Origin: a virus
Lineage: Duplodnaviria > Caudoviricetes
IMG/VR virus record: IMGVR_UViG_3300032048_000004
Span: 1 to 54,331 of that record
Reading direction: 5' to 3' (one strand)
DNA length: 54,331 nucleotides
Shown: positions 1,960-54,329 of the stretch, in pieces
How positions within the stretch are numbered: position 1 is the first letter of the stretch
Layout: the number at the start of each line of letters is the position of its first letter
The notes under the pieces: generated by a model
What the model was told of the DNA's origin: nothing
The model's database searches: none
Seen by the model: only the letters and a program-made list of their open reading frames with translations
Made by a program: the position numbers and the translations under genes

Positions 1960-4900
1960 CTATGCAAGTAGTTTAAAGTTATACTTTGCGCTGCGACTGC
2001 TAAAGCCCCACTGCTCATCATAATCTAGTTTAGCCATGTACGGGCGATTCAAGTGAAGGCTGTCCTTATCCTGATTGATACCCCAACATTTAATTTTTGT
2101 AATCGTACCAGTTATATCTGTTGCGTTGACAATCCAGTAAGCCTTGCCGTTCTTTGTTTTCTTTGTCACGACTTCTCTCGGAACAAACCAAGCGATGCCC
2201 AACTCAGGATCAAATTCACCAAGCGGTGGGATGTTATTAATCTCCAAGGCCCTTTGAACTTTGCTGCTTAAAATTAAATTCATGGGGAATACTCCTGTTA
2301 AGTTTACGAGATACTCAATCTTCTCTGCATCGGTGAAGTCGCCTTCGGGTGCATACAGTTCAATATTCTCGGCAAGCTTCTTCTTGTTCGCTGGTCGATC
2401 AACTGCAACGCAGGACCAATAGTGTTTGAGTCCTGAGAATCTGTCGTCCATCAACTCACTAAGAGCCTGACTACATATTAACACATCCAATGCCTTTTTG
2501 TTAAGCTTTGAATAAGTGATTGAATCATCGAACAGGAACTCCTCTATGTTTCTGAACGGACGATGCTCAAGTATCTGCTGCATAGCTGCTGCACCCAATC
2601 CTTTGATTGCGGTGAGCGGCTGAATTAATGTCTTGCCATCGTCAGAGATTTCCCACACGGCACCAGAGTTATTAATACTCAGCGGCTGGAGTCTGAAACC
2701 TGATGAGCGAGCAACATTAACTGCTCTCTCTTTGCGGCTCTCTGGTTCTTTATCAAGGAACGCTGCCATCCACTCTGCTGGAAAGTAGTTAAGGAGCCAA
2801 GCGCACTGATAAGACAGGACGCTGTATGAGATTGCGTGAGACTTGTTGAAGCCATAGCCAGAGAAGTATTCAAAGGTTTCCCAAAGCCTGTTGGCTTCTC
2901 CATCCGAAAGACCCTTCTCCAAACAGCCAGCGAGGAACTTTGTAAAGATTCTTTCTTTGACCTCAGCAGTCTTTCCAGTTCCCTTTTTGGTGAGAACCTT
3001 TCGGAGCATGTTGCCTTCGTCAAGTGATAAGTCTTTTCCAAGCTTGTGTGCCAAGGATGCAATCTGCTCCTGAAAGATCAGGAAGCCATAAGTTGATTCC
3101 GTAATCTCTTTAAACTCTTCACAGGGATACTCAACCCCTTCAGGATTGCGGCGGGCATTAATATAATTCCTGTCAACCTTCGCTCCCAAAGGTCCAGGAC
3201 GAAAGATTGAAGTGACCGCAGCCAAGTCAGTAATGTTATTTGGCTGGACACGCTTGCAGAAGTTCTGTGCGCCTGTCTCTGTAAACTGGAAGATGCCAGC
3301 CCACTTGCCTTTCTGGAATACGTTCTTATACACCTTCGGATCATCCATGTCGATTACATCTGGATGGAGATTGTCGTTATAGAACTTGCGAACATCATCG
3401 AAGGATGGATTCTCAATACCCTTGTGACGCTTGAGGATGTGTGTGATTGCACCTTCCATCATTCGCAGTGAAGCGAGTCCGAGAATATCAAACTTGATGA
3501 ATCCCATCTCCTCAAGGTGACGAACATTCTGTCCTTCACTCCATGGAGTCTGTCGAACACCACCACTATAGATCAGTGGCATGTTCTTATCGAGCCTGTC
3601 TGCAATCACAACGCCACCTGCATGACGAGAGCAGGAGCGAACCTGACCGACAAGGTTCTTAACGTGCGCTTCAACATGTGGATACTTGGCAAGGAACTCT
3701 TTCAATGAAGTGCTGAACTCCATGACCTCTTCCCAAGTCGGACTGTAGATACCGGAGATGATCCCATTCTTTCGCTTGGCTGCTGGTGTCGCCTCATGCA
3801 TCATGCGACTGGTTACAGGGTTTACTTCCGTGAAGGGGATATTATAAAACTTTGAAATGTCTTTGATGAGAGATCGCAACTGTAGTGTGTTCCAGTTGGA
3901 GATCGGAACAACAGTATCCTTTCCCCACTCGTCAACGAGCATCTCTTTAATGACCATCGGGTCACTGACATCATAATCAATATCGGGATAGCCCTTACCC
4001 TCTTTAGTTAGGAATCTCTCGAACTGAAGTTCGTACTTGATAGGATCAATCTGTGTGATGTTGAGTGCATATGCAACAAGCGAACCTGCTGCCGAACCTC
4101 TACCTGGACCAACCAGTTGTTGCTTGGAGGATCGATCCGCAATCGCTTTCATCGTGAGAAAGTATTTACTGAACCCTCGGTTGGTGATTACTTCAAGCTC
4201 GCTCTTGAGTCTGTTGACATAAATTAATGCTTTACCCTCATCGTCTGGGAACTTGCTATTAATAATCTTTCGGAGGCCAGTGACGGAAGCGTGTTGCAAA
4301 GCTTTGTCTGCTGTCATTCCTTCTGGCACAACAAAGTCTGGCAGTCGAACTGTATTGTCTGGGAGAAAGGTTTCAATGCGCTCATGAGCAATCTCATGTG
4401 TTCGCTTGATTGAGTCAAGGACTATTTTATCGTCATACTCGATGCCACAGATCTTGGAGTACCGCTTGTACGACTCAAACATCTGATCACCATTCTTGGG
4501 ATACAACTCATACGCCATGTCTTCAAGCTTCTCTGGCAGCTTTGCATCTCCGAGATCACCCTTGCCCAACCAAGCGAGCTTCTTGTATAGCTCACGATCC
4601 TTCCATGCTTCTGGGTTTGGATAGTGGCTATCGGCTGTGGAGATCAGTTGCATACCGAACTCTTCTGCCATCTGGATAACATACTTATTAACTTTGTGCT
4701 GCTCTGGAACCTTATTCCATTGCAACTCTCCATACCATCGATCACCAAAGATAGCTTGCATCTTTGTGGTTGTGACCCTCATTGCTTCAACGACAGCCTC
4801 TTCACCGTCGTCCCTGTTCGTCCAATAGTCGTTTGAGTAAACGCCACCAAGACAAGCAGACGCTGCGATGACGCCTTCGTTGTGTTCCAATAGCATATCA

Positions 4901-5403
4901 TAATCAAGACGGGGGAAGCGATAGAAGTTGTCACCAGAGAACGACTTTGAAATCATAGCAAAGATATTATTTAAGCCTGTCTGGTTCTGGGCTAATAAGA
5001 TAAGGTGGCTTCTGCGACGGATGAAGTCTTTTGTTTGTCTATCCTCAGTCTCGATAACAGTTCCTTGAGAGTCGCCTTTCTTCTTTGACCCTCGGCCTTT
5101 CTTTTTCAACTGCTCTTCGTCATAAGCATCTTTCCATCTTGAAACAGATGGAATGAAATATGCTTCGACGCCAAAGATTGGCTTGAAGTTCTTGCCAGCC
5201 TTCTTCATCTTCTTTGCATGAAGAACCTGATAGGCAAGACCATTGGCATTGCCGTGATCAGTCAGTGCAAGAGCGTCCATGCCATTCTGATATGCATACT
5301 CCATGTGTTGTGGTGGATAGCCAAGAGCATCGAAGGGTGAACCTGCAACGCTGTGTGCGTGTAGCCCAACGAATGGGATGGATGATTTACTTCTGTCTGT
5401 CAT
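1960..5403 (-). CDS. dnaE: DNA polymerase III alpha subunit (family C, DnaE-like)
   Basis: PHP domain (HAHS, TDHG, ADSHY), GRGSAAGSLVAY, FERFL, PDIDYD, KFDILGL, FRPGP, GYGFNKSH and a C-terminal OB fold. Confidence 0.95.
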   Translation of the reverse strand: MTDRSKSSIPFVGLHAHSVAGSPFDALGYPPQHMEYAYQNGMDALALTDHGNANGLAYQVLHAKKMKKAGKNFKPIFGVEAYFIPSVSRWKDAYDEEQLKKKGRGSKKKGDSQGTVIETEDRQTKDFIRRRSHLILLAQNQTGLNNIFAMISKSFSGDNFYRFPRLDYDMLLEHNEGVIAASACLGGVYSNDYWTNRDDGEEAVVEAMRVTTTKMQAIFGDRWYGELQWNKVPEQHKVNKYVIQMAEEFGMQLISTADSHYPNPEAWKDRELYKKLAWLGKGDLGDAKLPEKLEDMAYELYPKNGDQMFESYKRYSKICGIEYDDKIVLDSIKRTHEIAHERIETFLPDNTVRLPDFVVPEGMTADKALQHASVTGLRKIINSKFPDDEGKALIYVNRLKSELEVITNRGFSKYFLTMKAIADRSSKQQLVGPGRGSAAGSLVAYALNITQIDPIKYELQFERFLTKEGKGYPDIDYDVSDPMVIKEMLVDEWGKDTVVPISNWNTLQLRSLIKDISKFYNIPFTEVNPVTSRMMHEATPAAKRKNGIISGIYSPTWEEVMEFSTSLKEFLAKYPHVEAHVKNLVGQVRSCSRHAGGVVIADRLDKNMPLIYSGGVRQTPWSEGQNVRHLEEMGFIKFDILGLASLRMMEGAITHILKRHKGIENPSFDDVRKFYNDNLHPDVIDMDDPKVYKNVFQKGKWAGIFQFTETGAQNFCKRVQPNNITDLAAVTSIFRPGPLGAKVDRNYINARRNPEGVEYPCEEFKEITESTYGFLIFQEQIASLAHKLGKDLSLDEGNMLRKVLTKKGTGKTAEVKERIFTKFLAGCLEKGLSDGEANRLWETFEYFSGYGFNKSHAISYSVLSYQCAWLLNYFPAEWMAAFLDKEPESRKERAVNVARSSGFRLQPLSINNSGAVWEISDDGKTLIQPLTAIKGLGAAAMQQILEHRPFRNIEEFLFDDSITYSKLNKKALDVLICSQALSELMDDRFSGLKHYWSCVAVDRPANKKKLAENIELYAPEGDFTDAEKIEYLVNLTGVFPMNLILSSKVQRALEINNIPPLGEFDPELGIAWFVPREVVTKKTKNGKAYWIVNATDITGTITKIKCWGINQDKDSLHLNRPYMAKLDYDEQWGFSSRSAKYNFKLLA

Positions 5404-16204: not shown

Positions 16205-16273
16205 GATTTTTTCTCCTTTTTGAGTAAATTACTCTGTAGTATGTTTAGCAAATATTCCAAACATCTGTTCCTA

Positions 16274-16303
16274 ATTATACCACAACTGCATTATTGCTGT
16301 CAA
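16274..16303 (-). promoter_or_regulatory. sigma70-like promoter for SSB/recA
   Basis: TTGACA-18 bp-TATAAT with extended TG, lying within the 3' end of the upstream ORF. Confidence 0.7.
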
Positions 16304-16571
16304 GTATTTTTTTAGAATTAACTTCACTGACGATCGCCTCGCCAACGATTGTATTCCAGTTAAAGACTCTGAAGCCTTTACTGTCGATATCCCAAACGAT
16401 TTCCATACCTTCCGACAATCCGTTCTTACGATTGGATCCTTTCAGGTGAGAACTGAGGAATTCTTTTGGCAAATCATCAAGTTTTACAAAACTCATCTTT
16501 CGCTCATCGCCGTTCTTCTTGAGGAAGGTGGCGGTGGTTGATTTAATGTTATTCTTCATAAGCACTTTCAA
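16275..16571 (-). CDS. small SH3/WYL-like beta-barrel protein
   Basis: F.KKNGDER.M ... VWDID.KGFRVFNW pattern typical of phage WYL_2-like proteins. Confidence 0.55.
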   Translation of the reverse strand: MKVLMKNNIKSTTATFLKKNGDERKMSFVKLDDLPKEFLSSHLKGSNRKNGLSEGMEIVWDIDSKGFRVFNWNTIVGEAIVSEVNSKKILDSNNAVVV

Positions 16572-16591: not shown

Positions 16592-16620
16592 ATTATAGCA
16601 CAACTGAAATGTATTGTTAA
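16592..16620 (-). promoter_or_regulatory. sigma70-like promoter with an inverted repeat flanking the -10 box
   Basis: TTAACA-17 bp-TATAAT (extended TG); TTTCAGTT/AACTGAAA arms at 16584-16591 and 16602-16609. Confidence 0.65.
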
Positions 16621-17519
16621 ATGTTTTTTAAGGCGTCTTCGCCTTGGGGTTCATCTGAATGAACAGCGACATAAACATAACTATCTTCATATTCTGTCTC
16701 GTTGATGACATAGGATATGCCAACACCTTGCTGCTCTGCTTTCTTCTTCATGTTCTCTTTCAACTCCTTAAAGAATGTTTTATCTTCCAGGACTTCTTTA
16801 TTCACTGCAATGTAATATGTCTTGTCAGTTATATTTTCCAATGGGAAGAACAGACGCTCTTCTCCCGTGTCTGGATTTACAACACCATAGGTCGTAATCC
16901 GAACATGATCTTCTGTATCCGACTTGTTTTCGAATACAGGCTTCGTGTTGTTGAAGATATTGAGCATGTGATGCGTTGAAACAATGGTCTTGTTTAGCTC
17001 ATCGAAGTACCCCTTGATTGCAACATCGCCAGTGGCGTTCTCAATGGATGGGTTATACGTCAGATACATTCTCTCGAACATGCCAGAACGTGCATACTCT
17101 TGCATGACATAATAAGAGATCCTATCCAAGATATATTTTTTTCCACCAATCAACTGGAGATCTGGCTTAACATACATTACCGATAACTTACAGTTTTTGA
17201 TAGTTTCCAACACCCTAAGTGAAGCCCCTGTTATCTTTCCGCCACCAGCCATAATAAAGAGAACATTGTCTCCATCTTTCAGTTCTTCAAAGAACGTCTT
17301 CATCGAGGGACAATTCTTTTCATAGTCCTCCGAGGTTAATTGAAGAGGCATAGAGAAAGTCTTAACATTACTTTCCTCCGCCTCATCGTAGACAAGGCCG
17401 CTTAGATCGTTAAGGCTCTCCAGCCCTACATCGATCTTGTATACTTTATATTGCGGGTATTTCGCAAACTGGTCTGCTATGTTACAGCCAGCCGCACCCA
17501 ATCCAATTACAGCATCCAT
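16617..17519 (-). CDS. divergent tubulin/FtsZ-superfamily protein
   Basis: VIGLGAAGCNIA (T1), KID (T2), degenerate signature AGGGKITGAS (T4), YVKP (T5). Confidence 0.65.
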   Translation of the reverse strand: MDAVIGLGAAGCNIADQFAKYPQYKVYKIDVGLESLNDLSGLVYDEAEESNVKTFSMPLQLTSEDYEKNCPSMKTFFEELKDGDNVLFIMAGGGKITGASLRVLETIKNCKLSVMYVKPDLQLIGGKKYILDRISYYVMQEYARSGMFERMYLTYNPSIENATGDVAIKGYFDELNKTIVSTHHMLNIFNNTKPVFENKSDTEDHVRITTYGVVNPDTGEERLFFPLENITDKTYYIAVNKEVLEDKTFFKELKENMKKKAEQQGVGISYVINETEYEDSYVYVAVHSDEPQGEDALKNI

Positions 17520-26976: not shown

Positions 26977-27309
26977 TCACTTAAAGGGCCACTTCAATCT
27001 TGTTGAAGTTTCAAACTTCTTGATCATGTTTCTCAATTTAAACTTATCTTTATAAGTTCTGGGGTTGTCAAGACCATACTTTGCTGCTGTCTTGATATAC
27101 TTCTTCTCCGAACCCAAAGCTCTTGTGAAGTCTTTAACCTGTCGTGGACTGCCCTTGACACTCAAGGGAAGGGTGCTTCCACCGAACATAGAACGAAGGA
27201 TCCACTTCAGATTGGAACCAAACATTCCAAGCCAACTTTCAGTGACTTCTCCTCTCTCTGCGACAGTGAGATCGATTTCAATTGTTTGTAGTTCTTTATC
27301 CTCTTCCAT
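26977..27309 (-). CDS. hypothetical protein
   Basis: GGAG SD; preceded by the ACTACTTA motif. Confidence 0.7.
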   Translation of the reverse strand: MEEDKELQTIEIDLTVAERGEVTESWLGMFGSNLKWILRSMFGGSTLPLSVKGSPRQVKDFTRALGSEKKYIKTAAKYGLDNPRTYKDKFKLRNMIKKFETSTRLKWPFK

Positions 27310-27343
27310 TGTGGTTCTCCATTTATAAGGTTGTTCTTATCAG

Positions 27344-27351
27344 TAAGTAGT
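27344..27351 (-). promoter_or_regulatory. putative late promoter motif ACTACTTA
   Basis: Recurs upstream of structural genes. Confidence 0.55.
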
Positions 27352-29097: not shown

Positions 29098-29143
29098 TTT
29101 TAAAAATTCTCCTTGCTAAAGATTGTCATAATCCTTTCTCTTA

Positions 29144-29151
29144 TAAGTAGT
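29144..29151 (-). promoter_or_regulatory. putative late promoter motif ACTACTTA
   Basis: Directly after a GGGGGAA/TTCCCCC hairpin and upstream of the tube gene. Confidence 0.55.
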
Positions 29152-32765: not shown

Positions 32766-32825
32766 GTTTTACTCTCCTGTATAATGGTGTCTTAACCAAT
32801 TTAAGCTTAAAGCTTATTTCTCTAA

Positions 32826-32833
32826 TAAATAGT
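32826..32833 (-). promoter_or_regulatory. putative late promoter motif ACTATTTA
   Basis: Upstream of the sheath gene, after a small GGGC/GCCC hairpin. Confidence 0.55.
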
Positions 32834-35515: not shown

Positions 35516-35536
35516 GTTGAATGTCTCCTACGCCAA

Positions 35537-35544
35537 TAAATAGT
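35537..35544 (-). promoter_or_regulatory. putative late promoter motif ACTATTTA
   Basis: Between the MCP terminator and the neck gene. Confidence 0.55.
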
Positions 35545-35624: not shown

Positions 35625-37409
35625 TTACATATCCCGTACAATAACAACTGCGTACATATCTGAACGCACCATCTTCTTACCGTAACGAGTCATCACGCCC
35701 TTTCGGGGGGTCAGATCCGCAGGATCAAAGATAGTTGGAGTTGTTTGCAGAGGCACATAAGGTGCATACACATACCCGCTTTCTAAAAAGCTTGAACCTT
35801 TTCGGCCCACAAGAATTGCATTCCGTGGGAAGTAGGGGTCAACATAGACATCCCACTTCTTATTCAATGCACCTTCCTTAACTGCACCAACGGTTCCTCG
35901 GTCAGCATCATGAGTGACGCTTGCTCGGAATCCAGAGGTAAACTCAAGGATGTTAGCCGTTTCGGGTCCGCAAACCAAGAAGTTTGCGCCACCACGAAGG
36001 GTCTTGCGGTGAATGTCAGCAGACGCATCGTTGACAGTTTCAACGAGAGTCTCATACCACTCACTTACATTACCAGTGAAGTCCATATCAGTAAGGCTTC
36101 CATCCGCTCCGGCTTTTTGGCCAGAAAGTTTTGACCAGTACCTAGTGCTTGCAGCACCTTGAAGAAGGTCGGTGAGGATTTCTTTGTCAATCTCAAGAGC
36201 AATTTGCTCCGAGAGGACAGAGGTAAGCTCAACTTCTGCATCAAGGTTGTGATAAGCATTAAGGTCTTGTCCCAATTCTGGGGTCCAGTGTGCTTTCAGC
36301 TTTTTGGTCTGTGCCGTGATAGCTACGCTATCAACTTTGATATCAATCTCTGGGATATCCGCAGATTCCATCGCCCAAGCAGCAGAGCCAACGACTCCGC
36401 CTGTTCCTACACTGGCAAATCCATCGCCAAGAACCCAAGAAATATCTTTAGCAGCGGTGATGGCTGTACCTGCAACGGCGCTGGCAGCGTTGGCGATAGC
36501 CAAGTCAGTACCAACTTCAGTAGGTTCAGTAAACGTAGTTGCGGTAAAGACAAATCTTACTTCATCAACAACACCATCGGCGGTGTAAGTTGCAGTAGTC
36601 AGTCGTCGGACCATCGATGGCGTTCCCGTACCTGATGGCGCTTCAAGCACAGATGCAATCTCTGCACCTTTTTGCATCCGAGCGGCTTTGCCGCCTGTAG
36701 TCGCAGTATATGAAGCTTCAACTTCTGCATTAACCAGTTTAAGAACAACAACCTGTGTACCAGTACCAGTAGCAGCGGGCAAATCAGCCAGAAGATCTGG
36801 ATCATGCTGAATGGCTGCCAATTGTGCGGCAGTTAAATCAGTAGAGTTAAGTGCAAAGGTTGGAACCGCAACTTGCAACGATGTAGCACCTTTACATTCG
36901 GCAGAAGCACGATTGTTGGAATATCCAGTACCAAGGTTATAAAAACCAGTATCTGGATCTGTGGTTAAATCCACTCCAGCGGCAATTTCACTTGCGACGG
37001 CTCCGCCACCATGTACTGAATTAGTAGAGTTTGGCGCTCCTGGGGTCGATGCCGCAGCATCGCCTAGATTTCTTGTAAAGTCCAAGAAGAAGATAAGTCC
37101 AGATGGCAAGCTCATAGGCTGCACCGAAACTATATCATTTGCAAGAAGTCCGCCGAATACTCGTCGGACGATGGGGAAGGCAACAGCAGCGAAACCGCTT
37201 ACATCTTGACCAGCACCCATGCTGCTTTCCTCACGAAGTAGTTCCTTCGCTTGGTTTTCGAGAAGACAGGCCATTGACTGCTTCTTTTGATCACTTTCTA
37301 GTCCTTCTAAAAGACCAGTGTTTGACCACTTGTTTAAGAGGGCTTCACCCTCTTTGGCGACATTGCGTGACACAATGCCTTCAGTTAGTTTTTGTAAAAC
37401 ATTTGACAT
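35625..37409 (-). CDS. major capsid protein (T4 gp23-like)
   Basis: PIVRRVF, VQPMSLPSGLIF, KLKAHWTPELGQDL.AYH.LDAE.EL, YAPYVPL and GVMTRYG motifs. Confidence 0.95.
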   Translation of the reverse strand: MSNVLQKLTEGIVSRNVAKEGEALLNKWSNTGLLEGLESDQKKQSMACLLENQAKELLREESSMGAGQDVSGFAAVAFPIVRRVFGGLLANDIVSVQPMSLPSGLIFFLDFTRNLGDAAASTPGAPNSTNSVHGGGAVASEIAAGVDLTTDPDTGFYNLGTGYSNNRASAECKGATSLQVAVPTFALNSTDLTAAQLAAIQHDPDLLADLPAATGTGTQVVVLKLVNAEVEASYTATTGGKAARMQKGAEIASVLEAPSGTGTPSMVRRLTTATYTADGVVDEVRFVFTATTFTEPTEVGTDLAIANAASAVAGTAITAAKDISWVLGDGFASVGTGGVVGSAAWAMESADIPEIDIKVDSVAITAQTKKLKAHWTPELGQDLNAYHNLDAEVELTSVLSEQIALEIDKEILTDLLQGAASTRYWSKLSGQKAGADGSLTDMDFTGNVSEWYETLVETVNDASADIHRKTLRGGANFLVCGPETANILEFTSGFRASVTHDADRGTVGAVKEGALNKKWDVYVDPYFPRNAILVGRKGSSFLESGYVYAPYVPLQTTPTIFDPADLTPRKGVMTRYGKKMVRSDMYAVVIVRDM

Positions 37410-37436: not shown

Positions 37437-38582
37437 TTATTTAATCCCAGCTAGGTGCTTCCAACGATTCATCTCGTTGTTTGCCTCTGCTGGCTTTTCA
37501 CGCCTTGGCATAAAAGCTGGGGATCGTTTTGAAATTGCTTCGCTCAGTGATTTCGGGTTCCGCTTGGTGCGAGAACTCTCCACTGCGCTTTGAAGGGTTT
37601 CATAAATAACCTTTGCTTCTTCAACCGTATTGGCATTAGAAATAGCTTCGGCAATCTTTTCGATTTGCCGCTCATTCAAGGAGCCACTATTTAAAATCTT
37701 ATTCGTATATACTAATTTTGCATTTGAGAGGTTGGTTTTCTCAACCTCTTCTTTGAGATGGTTAATGACTTTAATGTATTTTGATTGATCATTAGTCATT
37801 TTATCAACACTCTCTTTTAATTCTTCAATGGTTTTCTTAAGTGCATCAGCTTCTTCTGCTCGCTCATCATCTCGTTGAGATGCGAGAATAGCGTCACGCT
37901 CTGCTTCCATTTCTGCATTGTTGGTGATTCCACGACCACCGATCGTTCCATTTGGTTGAGGATCATAATCAACAGTGAGTGCTTCCTCAACAGTTTCTTC
38001 TTCTTCCTCTTCGATAACCTCTTCAGCGTCTGGCTCTTCAGAAATTACTTCTTCTTCAGAATCTTCTTCTGAGAGAACTTCATCAATCAAGTCTCCAATG
38101 ATTGATTCAACTTCACCAAGATTATATTCTTCTTCTTCGTCCTCTTTGACCTCTGCAAAGATTTCTTCTTCGTCTTCAGGGGCGCCAAGTGATTGCAGAT
38201 CATCAAGTGATCCAACAGTGTCGTCTTCCATCGCTTCTTCTTCTGCGTCAACAGCAGCAGCGAGTTGATCAAAGTCAATCACAATCTCTTCTTCGTCTTC
38301 TGGACAAGGGCAAAGATTCTCACCATCTGAGACAGCGGTTGGTGCCTCGATGGAATCAGCGGCTGCGGCAGCAGGATCTGCGTCCATTCCCACGTCCATT
38401 CCAAGATCCATTCCAAGATCCTCTTCGGCCTCGGTGATTTCTTCTTCCTGCTCCAGCAGTGAATCGACTGCATCTCGAATACTATCTGCGTATTTCTCGA
38501 TCAGTGCTGATTCAGCGTTTTTAATTGCTGCTTCCTTAAGTGCTTTTGCATCTACTATAGCTTGCTCTAACATTGTTGACAT
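37437..38582 (-). CDS. prohead core scaffold protein (gp22-like)
   Basis: Very acidic coiled-coil protein directly upstream of MCP, ending RWKHLAGIK. Confidence 0.75.
   Translation of the reverse strand: MSTMLEQAIVDAKALKEAAIKNAESALIEKYADSIRDAVDSLLEQEEEITEAEEDLGMDLGMDVGMDADPAAAAADSIEAPTAVSDGENLCPCPEDEEEIVIDFDQLAAAVDAEEEAMEDDTVGSLDDLQSLGAPEDEEEIFAEVKEDEEEEYNLGEVESIIGDLIDEVLSEEDSEEEVISEEPDAEEVIEEEEEETVEEALTVDYDPQPNGTIGGRGITNNAEMEAERDAILASQRDDERAEEADALKKTIEELKESVDKMTNDQSKYIKVINHLKEEVEKTNLSNAKLVYTNKILNSGSLNERQIEKIAEAISNANTVEEAKVIYETLQSAVESSRTKRNPKSLSEAISKRSPAFMPRREKPAEANNEMNRWKHLAGIK
38383..38421. repeat. in-frame 12-bp tandem repeat (about 3 units, encoding DLGM/DVGM)
   Basis: TCCATTCCCACG TCCATTCCAAGA TCCATTCCAAGA TCC. 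Confidence 0.7.
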
Positions 38583-38619
38583 TTGTTTTCTCCTACCGCA
38601 ATAAAGTCTTTTGCAATAA

Positions 38620-38627
38620 TAAGTAGT
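38620..38627 (-). promoter_or_regulatory. putative late promoter motif ACTACTTA
   Basis: Upstream of scaffold-MCP. Confidence 0.55.
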
Positions 38628-38686: not shown

Positions 38687-39727
38687 TTACTCTAATCCGT
38701 TCAACGCCATGATTGCAATCAATCCTGGCAACGATTCTCTAATATACACACCCGAAAAGAGTGTCTCTGTTCGTCCACCGACATAAGAGATAGCTGCATC
38801 CAAGTGCTTGCCGACCTCTGGGTCGTCTGCCATCTCTGGGGTTATAATCAACAGCATAACACCCGTTTTGGGGCGTCCAACTGGATCTGGACAGGGTGAT
38901 CGCTTCAAACAGTTGTGAAAGATCTCTGCGCCCATGTTTGCAGAAGCTTCCTTCACCATTGTTGAACCAACGAACATCCTTTTATTCGTTTTTAGGCATC
39001 TTTCAAGATCTTTCGAGTCAAAAGACTGAATTGGTGACTTTTCTCCGGCCAATTTAAGAATCTGAAGGAATAGTTTTCCAAATGTCTTGTTGGCTGTCGG
39101 GAACATGCCAAGCATACCGACTTTTCCCCTCAAAAGCTGAACTTGCTTCTCATTATCGAGGATAACGTGAGGTTTGTCTTTCAAATCCTTGGCAAGTGCT
39201 GCTGAGTTTTCTTTAATTGTTGGGTTTAGTTTTTCTTGGGCGGTTGGTTGGGTGATGACATAAAGAACTTTGCCTTCTGCCGACACTGACGCCAAATATC
39301 GCTCAAATACGGGATCAAGAGCGGCTGTTGATGAACCAGTTCCGCCTCCGCCACCTGCACAGACGACGAGCCAGTCAACCTTTCCGAACTTTGTTCGCAA
39401 AGCGTCTTCGACGACGACTCCGTTCTCTCTAAAGACCTTCTTGCCGATGGCTGTATCCTTTGCGGCACCATCTGATCCTGGAACGTGGACGAAGTGTTCT
39501 TCGGGGACGCCCATGGGTTGGTCTTTTTCCGTTGTATTGATTAAAAGGGTCTTGTTGAATCCCAAATCAAGGAATGACTTGGCAATTTTACCACCACCAC
39601 CTCCAACACCGACGATACCGATGTTAATTGCGGCACCTGCTTCGTTGTCAGGCAGTTGGTCTTCATTCTTTACTTCTTCTGATTCGCCATACTGCTCAAT
39701 AAAATCAAAGTCTTCAAAATCGCTCAT
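38687..39727 (-). CDS. tubulin/FtsZ-family GTPase (PhuZ/TubZ/CetZ-like)
   Basis: VGVGGGGGKIA (T1), INTT (T2), GSDGAAKD (T3), AGGGGGTGS (T4), QP..QE (T5), LDNE (T6), SFDSKD (T7). Confidence 0.9.
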   Translation of the reverse strand: MSDFEDFDFIEQYGESEEVKNEDQLPDNEAGAAINIGIVGVGGGGGKIAKSFLDLGFNKTLLINTTEKDQPMGVPEEHFVHVPGSDGAAKDTAIGKKVFRENGVVVEDALRTKFGKVDWLVVCAGGGGGTGSSTAALDPVFERYLASVSAEGKVLYVITQPTAQEKLNPTIKENSAALAKDLKDKPHVILDNEKQVQLLRGKVGMLGMFPTANKTFGKLFLQILKLAGEKSPIQSFDSKDLERCLKTNKRMFVGSTMVKEASANMGAEIFHNCLKRSPCPDPVGRPKTGVMLLIITPEMADDPEVGKHLDAAISYVGGRTETLFSGVYIRESLPGLIAIMALNGLE

Positions 39728-39788
39728 ATCACATAGCTCCCTATTTTAATTTAATTAGCTTGTGGATGGGTTTTTTGACTAAAATTGG

Positions 39789-40004
39789 CTATTTTCGCCG
39801 TCGATTGCGACGTTTTTCCGCTTTGCGTCGATCACGCTGGCGTTGTTGTTCTGCTTTTTTTCTTTTGAGTCTTTTTTTAATAGAAGGCTTTACATAATAC
39901 TGTTTGTCTCGGTGATCTTCTAGGATACCGGAGATTTTAACTTTTTTTATAAATCTTCTGATTAGCTTTTCGATGTACTCATCTTTTCTGCTATCAACTT
40001 GCAC
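39789..40004 (-). CDS. rpsU: ribosomal protein bS21
   Basis: EKLIRRFIKKVKISGIL...RDKQYYVKPS.KKR.KRKKA; 71 aa, highly basic. Confidence 0.85.
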   Translation of the reverse strand: MQVDSRKDEYIEKLIRRFIKKVKISGILEDHRDKQYYVKPSIKKRLKRKKAEQQRQRDRRKAEKRRNRRRK

Positions 40005-40433
40005 TTATTGTCTACCTTTCTTATCAGTTCCTGCTAACTGTTTCCAAGCGGCTGTTCTTCCGCCAGTGAAGTTTGAAATATCAACACCAGCATCTCTTGG
40101 ATCTCGTCCAGAAAGTGGGCTTTGGCCATTGCTTTCTGCGGGTGCTGGGGTTGTGCCTTCGAAGATATCAACTCCGCCATAAGCATCACTTCCGATTGAG
40201 TCAAGCAATGCTTTTCTCTTTCTCTTTGATTCCTCTAGGGCTTGTTGGTGTCTTTCTTCCTCTTGCCTCTCTTGTTCCTCTGAAACAATTTGGGCAGTTG
40301 GAGCAGCGGTTGATAAACCGTTTGCAACTTCTGATACAATACTTGATATGATGCCATTCTCTTCCAATATGACTTCACGGATGCACTCTCGGATGAGAGG
40401 CTTTAAGATTTTCTTTAGTTCTGATTTTTTCAT
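40005..40433 (-). CDS. hypothetical protein (head module)
   Basis: Translationally coupled between protease and bS21. Confidence 0.7.
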   Translation of the reverse strand: MKKSELKKILKPLIRECIREVILEENGIISSIVSEVANGLSTAAPTAQIVSEEQERQEEERHQQALEESKRKRKALLDSIGSDAYGGVDIFEGTTPAPAESNGQSPLSGRDPRDAGVDISNFTGGRTAAWKQLAGTDKKGRQ

Positions 40434-41038
40434 TCTTCGCTCACAATTGAATTTAAAATACGGTTAATTCTATCTGCTTTTGTAAACATCTTCTTTTCCA
40501 TGCTCTCATTGACACTCATATATGCCTCTGGTGTTGATGGCTCTGAAACAAAGTCGAAGCAGATTAGTTGGAAGTCGTCTTCGACAACCGTTGCTCCGTT
40601 GTTATCTTCATGAACCGATCCCAAACCTCGTGATGAGATTCCAAGCTTGACGCCAGATTCAACAAGTGATTTAAGGATTTGTCCTGAAGGGGTGTTGAGG
40701 ACTTTAACTTTGCCCATAACATTTTTTCCATCCCACCATACGGAAGTTACCATATGGGATGCGTTTCTGAGGTTTACAACTGAATCTTCTGGGTGATCTA
40801 ATTCTCCCAGTGCTCTGCGTTCATTAATGATCTTGGTATAGTTTTTCATTTCTCTCTCCAAAACCTTGTGAGGGTAGACCCTTCCATTTCCATTGAGTTT
40901 GTCAGCGCATTGCATAATGCCAGTTAAGTACAGAGTGCCGTTGGCGACTTCTTGCTTCTCATGTTCAGTGAGCAGATCTTGGCAAACACCGCCTTCACAC
41001 AGTTCATAATATTCTCTTAAGAGAACTTTTTTAGACAT
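40430..41038 (-). CDS. prohead protease (T4 gp21-like)
   Basis: NGNGRVYP, ALGELDHP, TPSGQIL, GISSRGLGS and DFVSEPST motifs. Confidence 0.93.
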   Translation of the reverse strand: MSKKVLLREYYELCEGGVCQDLLTEHEKQEVANGTLYLTGIMQCADKLNGNGRVYPHKVLEREMKNYTKIINERRALGELDHPEDSVVNLRNASHMVTSVWWDGKNVMGKVKVLNTPSGQILKSLVESGVKLGISSRGLGSVHEDNNGATVVEDDFQLICFDFVSEPSTPEAYMSVNESMEKKMFTKADRINRILNSIVSEE

Positions 41039-49931: not shown

Positions 49932-52900
49932 TTAGTGATTAACAAACGCAAACCCATTCTTCTTTTCAATTGAAATTTGCGAGTCTACAGAGTCCTTCAG
50001 TGCCTCTTGGTGAGATATGAGAAGGACTGTTTTGAAGTGTGTTTTAACGAGATCGAGGATTCTAACGAACCCTTCCATGTTCTCTTCATCCAATGCTGTT
50101 CCTGGCTCATCCAAGATGAATATGTCGCCTTTCGGCATGGAAGACACGCTCAAGAGTGCTAAACGAATTGCCATGGCAGCAATGGTTTTTTCCGCTCCTG
50201 AACCCATTTCCAATGGTCTTGCACTAAACTTGGGATGTTTAATAAATATCTCAAGCCTCTTGTCAATATCTTCGACATACACTTCAAAGTCAACGATGTT
50301 GGCAAGGGTTGATGCAATTTCAGCATTAATAATTGGTAATCTATTTTTGATAATATCCAGAGAAATTCCATTTGTGTGGACGCATCGCATAAACAAATCG
50401 TAGGCTGCGTACTCTTCTCTGGCTTCTGATAATTCTTCTTTCTGCTCGCTCAAACTCTCAAGTTGTTGAGTCAGCGAGCCGCTCTCCTTATATAACTCCG
50501 TGAGTCTATTTTCGCATTTAATGAGCTTATCTTCGGATTCTCTCACCTTGACAGTCTTCTTTTTTCTATCGGCAATAAGGTGTTCCAAGTTCTCAATTGC
50601 GTCACGATTCTCTTCATACTCAGCAATTTTGTCAGAAAGATTTCGAATCTCAGAGTCAATGTTTAAGACTTTGGTTTTGTTTTTCGCAATTTGTAGCTCA
50701 ATCTTGCCAATTTTTGTTTCCGTCGATGCTCGCTTCTCAATGACCTGACGGTGCTTCTCAATGTACTGGGCAATGACATCTGGCTGGAGATTGAGAATTT
50801 CCTTACCAACTTCTTTCTCTCTGTCTTTTGCCTCGTCAAGATCTTTTTTCGTGATTCCGATACTTTCAAGCGCAGTAAAAGCATCCTTGATGAATTTACA
50901 TTGCGGGAAGCTTTCTCCACACGGAACTTCGTTGAGGAGTTGGATCTTCTTCTCTTCTACTTCTCGGACGGTTTCTTTTTCTCTGATAAGTCTAAGTACC
51001 CCATCGAGGGCATCTTTTTTCTGTCGCACCATCTCTTGCTTATCATTCCACTCGTCAATATTAAATTCACTACAGAGGCTGTCAATCTTTGCAACAATAT
51101 CCCTATTTTCATCAGATTCCTCTTTTAACTTTTTATTTTTATTTTCTAGGCTGTGAGAGTTTCTTTTCTGCTCTTCCAACAATTTGGTGACTTCTTTAAT
51201 ATTAATGATAACCGCTGGGATGGCATCAATTGAAGATTGAAGTTCGATAAGATTAGCCTTGCTGGTTGCAATGTCGCCTCTTAATATGCTGCAAGTGTCT
51301 TTCTGCTCGCTCACTTCTTTGTTGTGTGAAATGAGTTGTGTTTGTATAACCTCTGACTCTGTGTCGAAATCGATCACTTCAAGCCTCTTCAGGATTGCCT
51401 TAAGATCAGAAGCGTCATCCTTTGCAAGTTTGAACTTTTTATCGAAAATCTCAAGGTCAAGGAACTTCGCAAGGATCTCTTTCCTCTTCGTCGAACCCTC
51501 ACCAATGAAGTCCAGAGAGCCTAATTGAGAGGCCATTGAGGTCAAAAGGAAGTCATCCATCGTACCAAAGTATTTTCTGATATTCTTGTCTGTTCCGTTA
51601 CGATCAAGGCCATTAAGAGGCTCTTTCCTGTTGGTCACTGGATTGTACGTTGAGAAGGTTACGTTAGTTTTTGCTTCGTCTGTTTCTTCTCCTCGGAGTT
51701 TTTTAGTATATTTCTCACAGTCACGTTCAATGATCAGTGTGGTGTCTCCAACCTCAATTTCGGCCCTTCCTTTGGCCCAATCAGCCTTTTCATTGATACT
51801 GTTCAGATTCTTCCGATTGCCCTTTGAGGTCGAATTATAGACGGTGAACAACAGACTATCGATGATACTTGACTTTCCAGAAAAGTTTTTTCCAAAGATG
51901 CCAACGATGCCATTCATGTTCTCGAAATCAATTTTATTCTTCTCTCCGTAGTTGAACAGGTTATCCCATTCAAGAGACTTCAAGCTCCAACGAACATTTC
52001 TTTTTACGTCCTCGCCAGCTTCGACGACTGTATTGTATTGTTTATTCAAAGCACAGACACGATCGAACATTACGTCGGTTACTTCATAATCTTCCAAGAA
52101 TTGCTTGAAGAACTTTTCCTGCACTGCAATGTTCCGCAAGTCCTCTTGTATGAGTTCTCCTTCGATCTCGACACTACGACGTGCTCCTGAAGCTCGATTG
52201 AGAAATGTTACAGAGGTTGGCTTGAACTTTGATTTTGCAGTGTCCAATGCCCTTCTGAGCTTGTGAATCGGAAGGCTGTGGTTTGTTGCAACACGAAGTC
52301 TTGCGCCCTCTGGAACAACTGCGTTCTTGGGAATACGACCTTGCTTGGTCAATTCGATTGTAACGAACGGACGTGGGTTTTCAAGGACATGATGCTCAAC
52401 AGTGAACTCATCTTTACTTTTAATATCCCAAACGAGATAGCCCTTGTCATTTGTCTCGCCATGGTTTTGTTGAACGGTGGAACCTGGATAACGGACACGA
52501 CCCTCAGTATCAAGAATCTGATTCGTTTTGTGAATATCCCCAAGAAAGGCATAATCAAAGTCCTCAAACACTGCAATATCATGATCGCCGTGTTCCATTA
52601 TCCAGCCAGTGTCTGTTACGACACCACCTACCGCTCCATGGTATAGAGCAATATTTATTTTATCCGCATTTGATGGCTGGACCCAATTGTCTTCATCGAA
52701 CACACTCAACACATTAATGGTGAAATCTTTGTCCAACACAGTCTCGCCAGCGGATTTGAGCAAGTGAAGGTTGGGAAGATTGAGTGCCTCAATAATTGGG
52801 GTCAACGCATCTTGGCGACTTTCGTTCTTAAGGTTTCCGTCATGATTGCCCAATATAATATAGGTGGGGGCGATACTCGATAATTCCTTAAAAAAGTTAG

Positions 52901-53084
52901 CTGCCATATCAACAAACTCAGGTGAAATCTGAGTCTTGGTATGTGCGATATCTCCACAGTGAATAATATAATCCACGTTTTGTTCTCGCAACATATTATA
53001 CATCTTTTCGAATACAGTTCTGTACTCGGAATGATATTTTAAATTTCGTATGTGGGTATCTGCAATATGTGCAAATCGTGCCAT
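49932..53084 (-). CDS. Mre11/SbcD nuclease - Rad50/SbcC ATPase fusion (gp47-gp46-like)
   Basis: DTH, GD, GNHD, GDIH and YPGS motifs, then GKNFSGKSS, coiled coil with Cys pair, GSGAE, LDEP and ISH. Confidence 0.92.
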   Translation of the reverse strand: MARFAHIADTHIRNLKYHSEYRTVFEKMYNMLREQNVDYIIHCGDIAHTKTQISPEFVDMAANFFKELSSIAPTYIILGNHDGNLKNESRQDALTPIIEALNLPNLHLLKSAGETVLDKDFTINVLSVFDEDNWVQPSNADKINIALYHGAVGGVVTDTGWIMEHGDHDIAVFEDFDYAFLGDIHKTNQILDTEGRVRYPGSTVQQNHGETNDKGYLVWDIKSKDEFTVEHHVLENPRPFVTIELTKQGRIPKNAVVPEGARLRVATNHSLPIHKLRRALDTAKSKFKPTSVTFLNRASGARRSVEIEGELIQEDLRNIAVQEKFFKQFLEDYEVTDVMFDRVCALNKQYNTVVEAGEDVKRNVRWSLKSLEWDNLFNYGEKNKIDFENMNGIVGIFGKNFSGKSSIIDSLLFTVYNSTSKGNRKNLNSINEKADWAKGRAEIEVGDTTLIIERDCEKYTKKLRGEETDEAKTNVTFSTYNPVTNRKEPLNGLDRNGTDKNIRKYFGTMDDFLLTSMASQLGSLDFIGEGSTKRKEILAKFLDLEIFDKKFKLAKDDASDLKAILKRLEVIDFDTESEVIQTQLISHNKEVSEQKDTCSILRGDIATSKANLIELQSSIDAIPAVIINIKEVTKLLEEQKRNSHSLENKNKKLKEESDENRDIVAKIDSLCSEFNIDEWNDKQEMVRQKKDALDGVLRLIREKETVREVEEKKIQLLNEVPCGESFPQCKFIKDAFTALESIGITKKDLDEAKDREKEVGKEILNLQPDVIAQYIEKHRQVIEKRASTETKIGKIELQIAKNKTKVLNIDSEIRNLSDKIAEYEENRDAIENLEHLIADRKKKTVKVRESEDKLIKCENRLTELYKESGSLTQQLESLSEQKEELSEAREEYAAYDLFMRCVHTNGISLDIIKNRLPIINAEIASTLANIVDFEVYVEDIDKRLEIFIKHPKFSARPLEMGSGAEKTIAAMAIRLALLSVSSMPKGDIFILDEPGTALDEENMEGFVRILDLVKTHFKTVLLISHQEALKDSVDSQISIEKKNGFAFVNH

Positions 53085-54051: not shown

Positions 54052-54329
54052 TTAGCACCAGCTTTCGCTATAATTAAACTATCGGCCCGATCATATGTAC
54101 CAGGCACAGGATTTCCAAACTTAGTCTCATCATAGCAGAATTGTGGTTCAGTGTCAAGTAAAAACTTCAATACAACCTTTTTTATATCTCCACCCTTTTC
54201 TTTTTTGGGGACACCACAAGATTTCCTTGCAGAAGGTGCGGAAATGTATTCAGGTTCCATACCCCATAGCTCATAACAGAGCCAACTGACAATTCCGTTG
54301 AACGCTGCGAGTGTTGAGATTGTTTTTGC
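54030..54329 (-). CDS. RuvC-like Holliday junction resolvase (5' end outside window)
   Basis: Frame is open to the window edge: AKTISTLAAFNGIVSW...SARK..G......K......DRADSLIIA. Confidence 0.6.
   Translation of the reverse strand, partial: AKTISTLAAFNGIVSWLCYELWGMEPEYISAPSARKSCGVPKKEKGGDIKKVVLKFLLDTEPQFCYDETKFGNPVPGTYDRADSLIIAKAGAKCIQPKK

Follow-up and report, generated by a model that had tools for sequence, protein, structure and literature searches.

A predicted tubulin/FtsZ-type GTPase with an N-terminal tail in an uncultured marine T4-like phage

What does a tubulin-like gene do among the head genes of a T4-like phage? The question is raised by a 54,331-base stretch of viral DNA, the single IMG/VR virus record IMGVR_UViG_3300032048_000004 (in the following called the window; CheckV completeness about 30%), which encodes a protein that we name Tub-A. 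An initial annotation of the window had read this gene as an intact tubulin/FtsZ-family GTPase inside the capsid morphogenesis operon. Taking a closer look with structure prediction and searches for relatives, we find that Tub-A belongs by its predicted structure to the tubulin/FtsZ superfamily, closest to TubZ and CetZ, and that it represents a subfamily of its own, virus-only within the reach of our searches. The coordinates of all features are collected in Table 1.

The open reading frame (ORF) of Tub-A is exact at its position and encodes 346 amino acids, with an ATG start and a GGGAG ribosome-binding site upstream. The AlphaFold2 (AF2) model, computed with an alignment of 58 relatives, has a pLDDT of 91.0 and a pTM of 0.89 with only residues 1–20 being uncertain, and it shows the complete two-domain fold of the tubulin/FtsZ type with an N-terminal Rossmann-like GTPase domain, the core helix H7 and a C-terminal activation domain. 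Using this model as query, Foldseek returned FtsZ, CetZ and TubZ with E values of about 1e-18. The structural comparison with FtsZ, CetZ, TubZ and PhuZ suggested by the initial annotation was run as a VIA search against 48,161 representative chains and placed TubZ and CetZ closest (Z 28–31), followed by FtsZ (26) and PhuZ (19–20). The top match is TubZ/RepX from Bacillus cereus (4ei7; Z 31.3, rmsd 2.5, 308 aligned residues), tied within 1 Z unit with CetZ2 (4b45; Z 30.7), and next come CetZ (3zid; Z 28.7), TubZ from B. thuringiensis (3m8k; Z 28.5), TubZ from the Clostridium phage c-st (4xcq; Z 27.7) and FtsZ from P. aeruginosa (2vaw; Z 26.1). Eukaryotic, Asgard and BtubA tubulins reach Z 21–23, PhuZ 19.0–19.7, and unrelated Rossmann folds stay below 10. 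Sequence scores are weak, as phmmer against the PDB sequences gave S. aureus FtsZ with E 7e-6, c-st TubZ with 8e-5 and CetZ with 4e-3, and the family phrog_4733 (‘tubulin PhuZ’) matches with E 3e-4. It is the predicted fold and not these scores that decides the membership of Tub-A in the tubulin/FtsZ superfamily.

The reading as an intact GTPase with recognisable loops is also supported by the conservation of its motifs in the 58 aligned family members. In the T1 nucleotide-binding loop G40, G42, G43, G45 and K47 are invariant, and so are G127 to S132 in the G-box GGGGGTGS (residues 125–132), which contains the T4 loop. The SFDSKD peptide, which had been called T7-like, deserves this name, as its D237 and D240 are invariant, HMMER aligns it onto the T7 loop ‘NLDFAD’ of FtsZ, and both aspartates match those of NLDFAD and of ‘TDLGD’ in CetZ. 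Members of the tubulin/FtsZ superfamily complete the active site of the adjacent subunit with their T7 loop, which reaches into its nucleotide pocket. The invariant aspartates therefore argue for an assembly-coupled GTPase activity of Tub-A and are its best sequence-level sign. A complex prediction with two copies of Tub-A, GTP and Mg (score 0.00, mark 0.42) was uninformative either way on self-association.

The two ends of the protein also turned out as initially described, with an acidic extension of about 30 residues at the N-terminus and no long tail at the C-terminus, where the chain ends right after the last strand (residues 336–345 of 346). The first two 10-residue blocks of the model have a pLDDT of 54 and 49 and everything from residue 21 onward one of 91. 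Inside this flexible part F7, D8, F9 and Y13 are invariant among the 58 sequences. L25 is invariant and N28 at least 90% conserved in the motif that links the tail to the core, and in the model this LPxN packs onto the core. The N-terminal order in the family is a variable-length leader, the peptide DFDF[IV][DE]xY, about ten acidic residues and LPxN. The FDF peptide was found in every distinct N-terminus read from related loci and is doubled in some clades, which points to a repeated short linear binding motif. The second copy (e.g. DDFDFAE or NEFDFLPP) is located further upstream in the N-terminal leader, in clades with the gene upstream of the terminase gene (loci L047, L050, L056, L058, L060, L071, L072, L075, L077, L078, L081 and L082). 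In FtsZ, TubZ and PhuZ it is the C-terminal tail that reaches membrane anchors, adaptors or the next subunit, and the simplest reading is that this tail function has moved to the N-terminus in the Tub-A family. A clamp-binding role of the FDF peptide, considered for its likeness to the C-terminal clamp-binding tails of T4-type polymerases, was dropped; the C-terminus of the DNA polymerase in the window has nothing like the FDF peptide, and when six genomes were searched for [DEN]F[DE]F peptides at protein termini, only scattered matches came up.

The explanation that we prefer, to which we give about an even chance, is that Tub-A forms a GTP-driven filament late in infection, which is tethered to a partner or cargo through its N-terminal FDF peptide, and that it is an accessory organiser of the infected cell and not a part of the capsid. 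Tub-A would bind GTP and assemble head to tail into filaments, with assembly triggering hydrolysis, and its synthesis late in infection would be due to a promoter of the late type or to transcripts that read through from the head genes. The acidic-aromatic peptide on its flexible leader would most likely take over the job of the C-terminal tail and could tether the filament to a partner, a cargo or the next subunit. As an accessory fitness factor, such a filament would serve to organise, for instance, phage DNA, proheads or the cell geometry late in the infected cell. The initial annotation had suggested capsid trafficking, replication-site positioning or a block of host division as possible roles, and these stand as guesses. 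What we infer here is that Tub-A polymerises, hydrolyses GTP, is made late and uses its N-terminal peptide in this way.

Late timing is suggested by the spacer upstream of the gene, in which the initial annotation had noticed a variant of a late motif; late-type control is indeed probable. The 8-mer GCTAATTA itself occurs once in the window versus 1.31 times expected by chance, and it is therefore meaningless alone. Its core CTA[ACT]TTA is found at six intergenic sites of the coding strand in the window; one of these precedes Tub-A, and five are located upstream of the ORF 26977-27309 and of the genes for scaffold, neck, sheath and tube. The core is also present within 160 nt upstream of the tubulin gene in 20 of 69 distinct relatives versus 5.8% of random windows, usually 25–55 nt before the start. 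The longer 9-mer ACTAYTTAT has exactly four copies in the window, all on the coding strand and in the spacers before the tube, sheath, neck and scaffold genes, the scaffold-position gene having its own exact ACTACTTAT motif at 38619-38627. Judged from these positions and sequences, ACTAYTTAT probably serves the phage group as its late promoter element, which differs from the TATAAATA of T4, and late expression of Tub-A can reasonably be assumed. Near-consensus sigma-70 promoters are found upstream of the gene for the single-stranded-DNA-binding protein (SSB) (about 16270-16305, minus strand; TTGACA, about 18 nt, TATAAT) and of the primase gene (about 54125-54160, minus strand; TTGACA, 17 nt, TATGAT), suggesting that early genes use the ordinary host sigma factor. 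Two metatranscriptome libraries, which come from two studies, yielded contigs that match 523 nt (X5) and 282 nt (X7) of the Tub-A gene with 0–1 differences, and contigs of the major capsid protein (MCP) are far deeper than tubulin contigs in the metatranscriptome runs, the depth being flat in the DNA run. Since the ranking of genes by contig depth is not possible and DNA may be present in an RNA library, these contigs hint only weakly, at best, at transcription of Tub-A.

In order to define the family we used a word-indexed search in a database clustered at 90% identity, in which 1006 proteins out of 8000 candidates scored had E <= 0.001; the best 120 matches are 62–96% identical to Tub-A and many of them come from ocean surveys. 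In IMG/VR 260 stretches encode a family member. An exhaustive search of 50%-identity representatives gave three full-length proteins at E <= 1e-108 and the next full-length ones only at E 1e-34, so by sequence the family is tight and set apart by a sharp gap. These next relatives are divergent ‘FtsZ-like’ proteins with 29–106 bits against the FtsZ model, many of them with Tubulin_2 or TubZ-like_C signatures. One distant relative, P0218 (821 amino acids), is tubulin-like with an apparent intein right after the G-box, the N-terminal splicing region of which covers residues 133–234. Look-alike clusters in the ESM Atlas are almost all viral, and one genome for each of 185,579 prokaryote species gave only four loci, all on contigs of 2.7–8 kb from metagenome-assembled genomes (MAGs). 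The MAGs in question are two of Flavobacteriales and one of Hyphomonadaceae (contigs L172–L175). Three contigs carry further genes common to these phages and the fourth was matched by the tubulin alone; the four probably represent phage DNA that was assigned to the wrong bin, or at most hint weakly at a host without allowing a reliable host call. As far as these searches reach, the Tub-A family is virus-only. Using tblastn with Tub-A, its next relative P0148 and a second tubulin-fold protein of the window (P0272, described below) against 50,697 deposited phage records, no cultured relative was found at E <= 1e-3, and P0148 has no relative in IMG/VR. Where present, Tub-A is among the most conserved proteins and by its sequence under strong constraint, as it ranks second of 102, fourth of 111 and fifth of 41 in identity among the proteins common to related genomes (66–78% versus a median of 47–49%).

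Some source annotations name family members ‘cell division GTPase FtsZ’. Tub-A does share the fold and the T1, T4 and T7 motifs with FtsZ, but it reaches only 27.8 bits against the FtsZ model TIGR00065 with its cut-off of 295.2, is about 20% identical, and has neither the C-terminal linker nor the conserved C-terminal peptide that binds membrane anchors in FtsZ. A recent copy of a host FtsZ, which the initial annotation had kept in view as a recent transfer, is rejected by this score and by the virus-only family. With the low identity and score, co-polymerisation with the host FtsZ is unlikely, too, and this weakens the idea that Tub-A takes over shape or division of the host, with a filament that remodels the envelope in a CetZ-like manner or interferes with the Z-ring so that the cell stops dividing or enlarges and the burst size goes up. 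The archaeal cell-shape tubulin CetZ is indeed the best profile-to-sequence match in the PDB (3zid, E 1.3e-9, full length, residues 42–342) and ties with TubZ in structure (Z 28.7–30.7, 17–19% identity, T7 aspartates aligned), and an accessory, patchy gene is usual for host manipulation. CetZ itself is archaeal and chromosomal, and Tub-A is phage-borne. Against the take-over speak also the missing membrane-targeting amphipathic basic helix, the acidic tail of Tub-A and the late timing inferred above, which would leave little time for a change of shape. We regard this take-over as unlikely compared to the tethered late filament.

The initial annotation had seen neither a PhuZ nor a tubRZ context, and both absences hold in the relatives. 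Tub-A resembles PhuZ in being a phage tubulin homologue in a large myophage, and PhuZ is reported to be non-essential or patchy within its phage group, as Tub-A is in its own. PhuZ from the chimallin jumbo phages (3rb8, 3zbq, 9pm9) is nevertheless the most distant of the bacterial-type structural matches. The phrog_4733 profile scores 20.8 bits on Tub-A versus 395 on phiKZ PhuZ, BLASTP of Tub-A against phiKZ PhuZ gave no significant match, and Tub-A has neither the PF22334 domain of phiKZ PhuZ nor a C-terminal acidic tail. Chimallin (phrog_4795) was found in none of five long relatives (201–293 kb; four CheckV 100% complete, two with terminal repeats), with phiKZ as positive control reaching 769 bits, and therefore Tub-A is not PhuZ-like in its context.

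Phage c-st uses its TubZ for type III partition, which is a precedent for Tub-A being a TubZ-type motor that segregates the phage genome in a plasmid-like carrier state. TubZ from Bacillus plasmids and phage c-st is the nearest solved structure, with alignments over 270–308 residues (rmsd 2.5–2.7, 16–22% identity, and 31% with c-st TubZ when counted over the first 95 residues of the core), both proteins are encoded by mobile elements, and the next-closest sequence clusters of Tub-A carry the TubZ-like_C and Tubulin_2 signatures mentioned above. We still hold such a partition motor to be highly improbable. A TubR-like gene is not located upstream, where bS21 is found in the window, and winged-helix Pfam families matched none of 61 flanking ORFs from 20 loci at E <= 1e-4. 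The single DNA-binding match among these is a Sigma70_r4 on the opposite strand, and the upstream genes differ between clades; as TubR from c-st is itself only a weak HTH_24 match, a very divergent adaptor could be missed in this search. From the TubZ C-terminal-domain families PF22453, PF22340 and PF21493 none matches Tub-A at E <= 0.01, PF00091 being the sole family reported, while c-st TubZ as control matches PF22340 with 159 bits. Different from TubZ, Tub-A has its tail at the N-terminus and no C-terminal TubR-binding tail, and its gene stands behind a late-type motif among the structural genes of a lytic T4-like genome with no centromere context. The late filament with an N-terminal tether remains the reading that we prefer.

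Whether the gene belongs to the head genes as such was analysed by locating the counterparts of eleven proteins from the head block of the window in 80 related loci. The arrangement S21, tubulin, scaffold is present in 5 of the 80 loci, and these group with the window in a single clade (support 100). The gene stands between MCP and a 440-aa neck gene in 25 loci, 2.2–4.8 kb upstream of the terminase gene and behind a fused SbcCD gene in 14, around the g198, g107 and protease genes in 5, and at other distances in 3, while no head gene was detected within the flanks examined in 28, including 10 loci with complete flanks of 10 kb. In a quick maximum-likelihood tree (IQ-TREE) of 70 distinct Tub-A sequences these position classes cluster; 13 changes were counted, versus a mean of 38.7 after shuffling, and not one of 200 shuffles came as low. 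The gene has therefore moved a limited number of times and been passed on within sub-lineages since. Each of the five long relatives has one copy of Tub-A. Two complete relatives, G006 (184 kb) and G007 (203 kb), carry the same head module and have neither a Tub-A-family tubulin nor a PF00091 match, with positive controls in the same search. G006 stands as near to the tubulin-bearing genomes (mean identity 46–49% over 52 core clusters) as these do among themselves (47–54%). A gene without fixed position that is absent from two complete relatives is accessory and not part of head assembly, and thus the assignment to the capsid morphogenesis operon could not be kept. From the proposed link to the head genes the shared strand stands, as Tub-A is on the head-gene strand in all 52 loci where head genes were found, and the conserved position does not.

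These data also bear on the possibility that Tub-A is a head-associated, injected protein whose leader serves as capsid-targeting sequence, so that it would be loaded into the prohead core and delivered with the DNA to act in the early phase of the following infection. Targeting peptides are found at the N-terminus of T4 internal proteins, the conserved N-terminal peptide of Tub-A is rightly placed for such a signal, and the 52 loci have the gene within or beside the head-packaging block and always on the same strand. The 28 loci without head gene, the two complete relatives with the same head module and no Tub-A, and the leader, in which inspection by eye revealed no conserved Leu/Ile-x-Glu as in the T4 protease site, all speak against it, and passive cargo would not need an intact, highly constrained polymerising GTPase. 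An injected Tub-A is thus very unlikely in our view, and an accessory filament acting in the infected cell is preferred.

The window encodes a second, cryptic tubulin/FtsZ-fold protein in the replication block (P0272, Table 1). It starts with IGLGAAGC and contains AGGGKITGAS, with GLGAAGC as T1 loop and GGGKITGAS as T4 loop, which align with those of Tub-A in a profile–profile comparison. It has 558 homologues and no sequence match in Pfam, PHROG or PDB, but its AF2 model (pLDDT 90.7) matches CetZ with Z 24.0, TubZ with Z 23.4 and in Foldseek with E 8e-13, and according to this model it has the full tubulin/FtsZ fold. The alignment of its family shows no invariant acidic residue after helix H7, where T7 is expected. 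The gene is present in all five complete genomes examined, including the two without Tub-A, and is absent from the phages immuto and Mel-JY01. As the superfamily has hetero-pairs like alpha/beta tubulin and BtubA/B, Tub-A could be a partner of this protein, which has no invariant acidic residue at the T7 place, or otherwise a GTPase that forms no filaments and works as a monomeric or dimeric switch or as a chaperone. The two genes are 21 kb apart in different modules, however, the second one also occurs without Tub-A, and with its invariant T7 aspartates Tub-A would rather form homotypic longitudinal contacts, which makes a non-filament role or such a pairing a poor candidate, of very low probability. 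A broader idea, which we put forward as speculative and quite unlikely, is that marine phages of the Far-T4 type, about 200 kb in size, have a cytoskeleton made of two parts and no phage nucleus, with the second protein as core mini-tubulin and the catalytically complete, late Tub-A as accessory part whose FDF peptide couples filaments to replicated DNA or proheads, perhaps as a hetero-pair like alpha/beta tubulin. If true, this would be a third, independent use of tubulins by phages beside PhuZ spindles and TubZ partition.

Several points weigh against the late, tethered filament. Pfam Tubulin (PF00091) scores 23.6 bits on Tub-A (E 7e-5) and thus below its cut-off of 33 bits, which is passed by three of five relatives on long contigs (33.5–35.8 bits). 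The divergent members P0122 and P0124 have degenerate G-boxes, and GTP handling may therefore differ across the family. The motif copy before Tub-A is off ACTAYTTAT at three of nine positions, and it is the position of CTA[ACT]TTA that suggests its role as promoter. Polymerisation and function of the family members are predicted from sequence and model. The shifting position of the gene and its absence from some relatives would also fit a dispensable, possibly host-specific function unrelated to positioning. Finally, no conserved neighbour or partner gene travelling with Tub-A was found in the related loci, which counts against the tether idea. There are 24 other ORFs of genome G001 that are present in three tubulin-plus genomes and absent from the two tubulin-minus ones, and none of them adjoins the tubulin gene; with only two negative genomes, the phyletic pattern cannot point to one particular partner.

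The phage tubulins characterised so far, according to the papers found, are PhuZ from nucleus-forming jumbo phages and TubZ from plasmid-like prophages, and the consulted part of a comparative paper on jumbo phages (PMC7824862) likewise describes two kinds of jumbo-phage tubulin only, for nucleus formation and for segregation. Full-text literature searches gave no description of the Tub-A family and only work on PhuZ and TubZ, and the main text of the Far-T4 genomics paper has no mention of tubulin, FtsZ or cytoskeleton. The Tub-A family, which is abundant in ocean metagenomes, would add a third setting, namely lytic T4-like phages without chimallin or TubR, and it has its tail at the N-terminus instead of the C-terminus. 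An uncultured marine T4-like phage with such a tail-first tubulin suggests that the building of a cytoskeleton is not restricted to phages with a phage nucleus. If Tub-A forms filaments, a virus-encoded cytoskeleton organising the cell interior would be much more common among phages than now thought, and the short invariant FDF peptide offers a direct handle for finding the cargo.

The phage itself has a T4-like gene layout with nearly all genes on the minus strand of the window. A replication block (DNA polymerase, ribonucleotide reductase, helicase, UvsX and the gp32-like SSB), a tail block (sheath, tube and baseplate) and a head block (large terminase, gp20 portal, gp21 protease and gp23 MCP) can be distinguished. 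Its nearest cultured relatives by MCP are all distant (Flavobacterium phage immuto 46%, Microcystis phage Mel-JY01 44%, Rhodothermus phage RM378 39%), and this similarity places it in the Far-T4 neighbourhood. The initial annotation was right in putting Tub-A between bS21 and scaffold/MCP. Upstream is bS21, with gp21 protease and gp20 portal further upstream, and the acidic 381-aa protein followed by the gp23-type MCP is located downstream. The 381-aa protein matches no Pfam or PHROG family, and its position suggests the role of the scaffold.

Table 1: Position of Tub-A, its motifs and other features (window coordinates unless another locus is named).
Feature	Position	Strand	Basis or context
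Tub-A coding sequence, 346-aa tubulin/FtsZ-fold GTPase (predicted)	38687..39727	-	ORF, AF2, Foldseek, VIA structural search
Acidic N-terminal tail, residues 1-30 (residues 1-20 predicted flexible)	39638..39727	-	sequence; pLDDT
Acidic-aromatic peptide FEDFDFIEQY, residues 4-13; family consensus DFDF[IV][DE]xY	39689..39718	-	conservation
LPDN motif, residues 25-28, linking tail to globular core	39644..39655	-	conservation
T1 nucleotide-binding loop GVGGGGGK, residues 40-47	39587..39610	-	aligned to FtsZ GVGGGG loop
T4 loop, tubulin signature GGGTGS, residues 127-132	39332..39349	-	aligned to FtsZ GGGTG loop
T7 synergy loop and start of helix H8, SFDSKD, residues 235-240	39008..39025	-	both catalytic-position aspartates
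Late-type promoter-like motif GCTAATTA, core CTAATTA, 25-32 nt upstream of ATG	39752..39759	-	position; core shared
ACTAYTTAT copies	29143-29151, 32825-32833, 35536-35544, 38619-38627	-	exact
ACTAYTTAT copy with one mismatch	27343-27351	-	
Second, cryptic tubulin/FtsZ-fold protein (P0272), 300 aa (predicted)	16617-17519	-	replication block, adjoins SSB gene
bS21, phage-borne ribosomal protein, 71 aa, upstream neighbour	39789..40004	-	PF01165 32.7 bits (cut-off 27); phrog_21469
Acidic 381-aa protein, gp22 scaffold position, downstream neighbour	37437..38582	-	between Tub-A and MCP
Major capsid protein, gp23 type	35625..37409	-	PF07068, E 1.7e-72
Prohead protease, gp21 type	40430..41038	-	PF03420, E 5e-37
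S21 in locus L006	6146-6373		

Some further observations concern the neighbouring genes. The bS21 gene lies inside the head block of the window, and Mel-JY01 has its S21 at the matching relative place, after the protease and one small gene, with no tubulin there. The 388-aa protein that follows S21 in Mel-JY01 was considered as a relative of Tub-A and rejected, being unrelated. In the closest relative of the window (L003), the tubulin of which is 82% identical to Tub-A, an extra ORF of 578 aa is located between the prohead protease gene and a 142-aa gene (3558-5294, corresponding to 7558-9294 in L012), which the window does not have. The window also encodes a fused Mre11/Rad50-type protein, a 1050-aa ORF at 49932-53084 on the minus strand with an SbcD-like nuclease (residues 1–266) and an SbcC-like ATPase (residues 304–1046). 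ORFs of about 1035–1055 aa like this SbcCD fusion recur in the relatives, and the copy that was scanned, from L047, is the same fusion.

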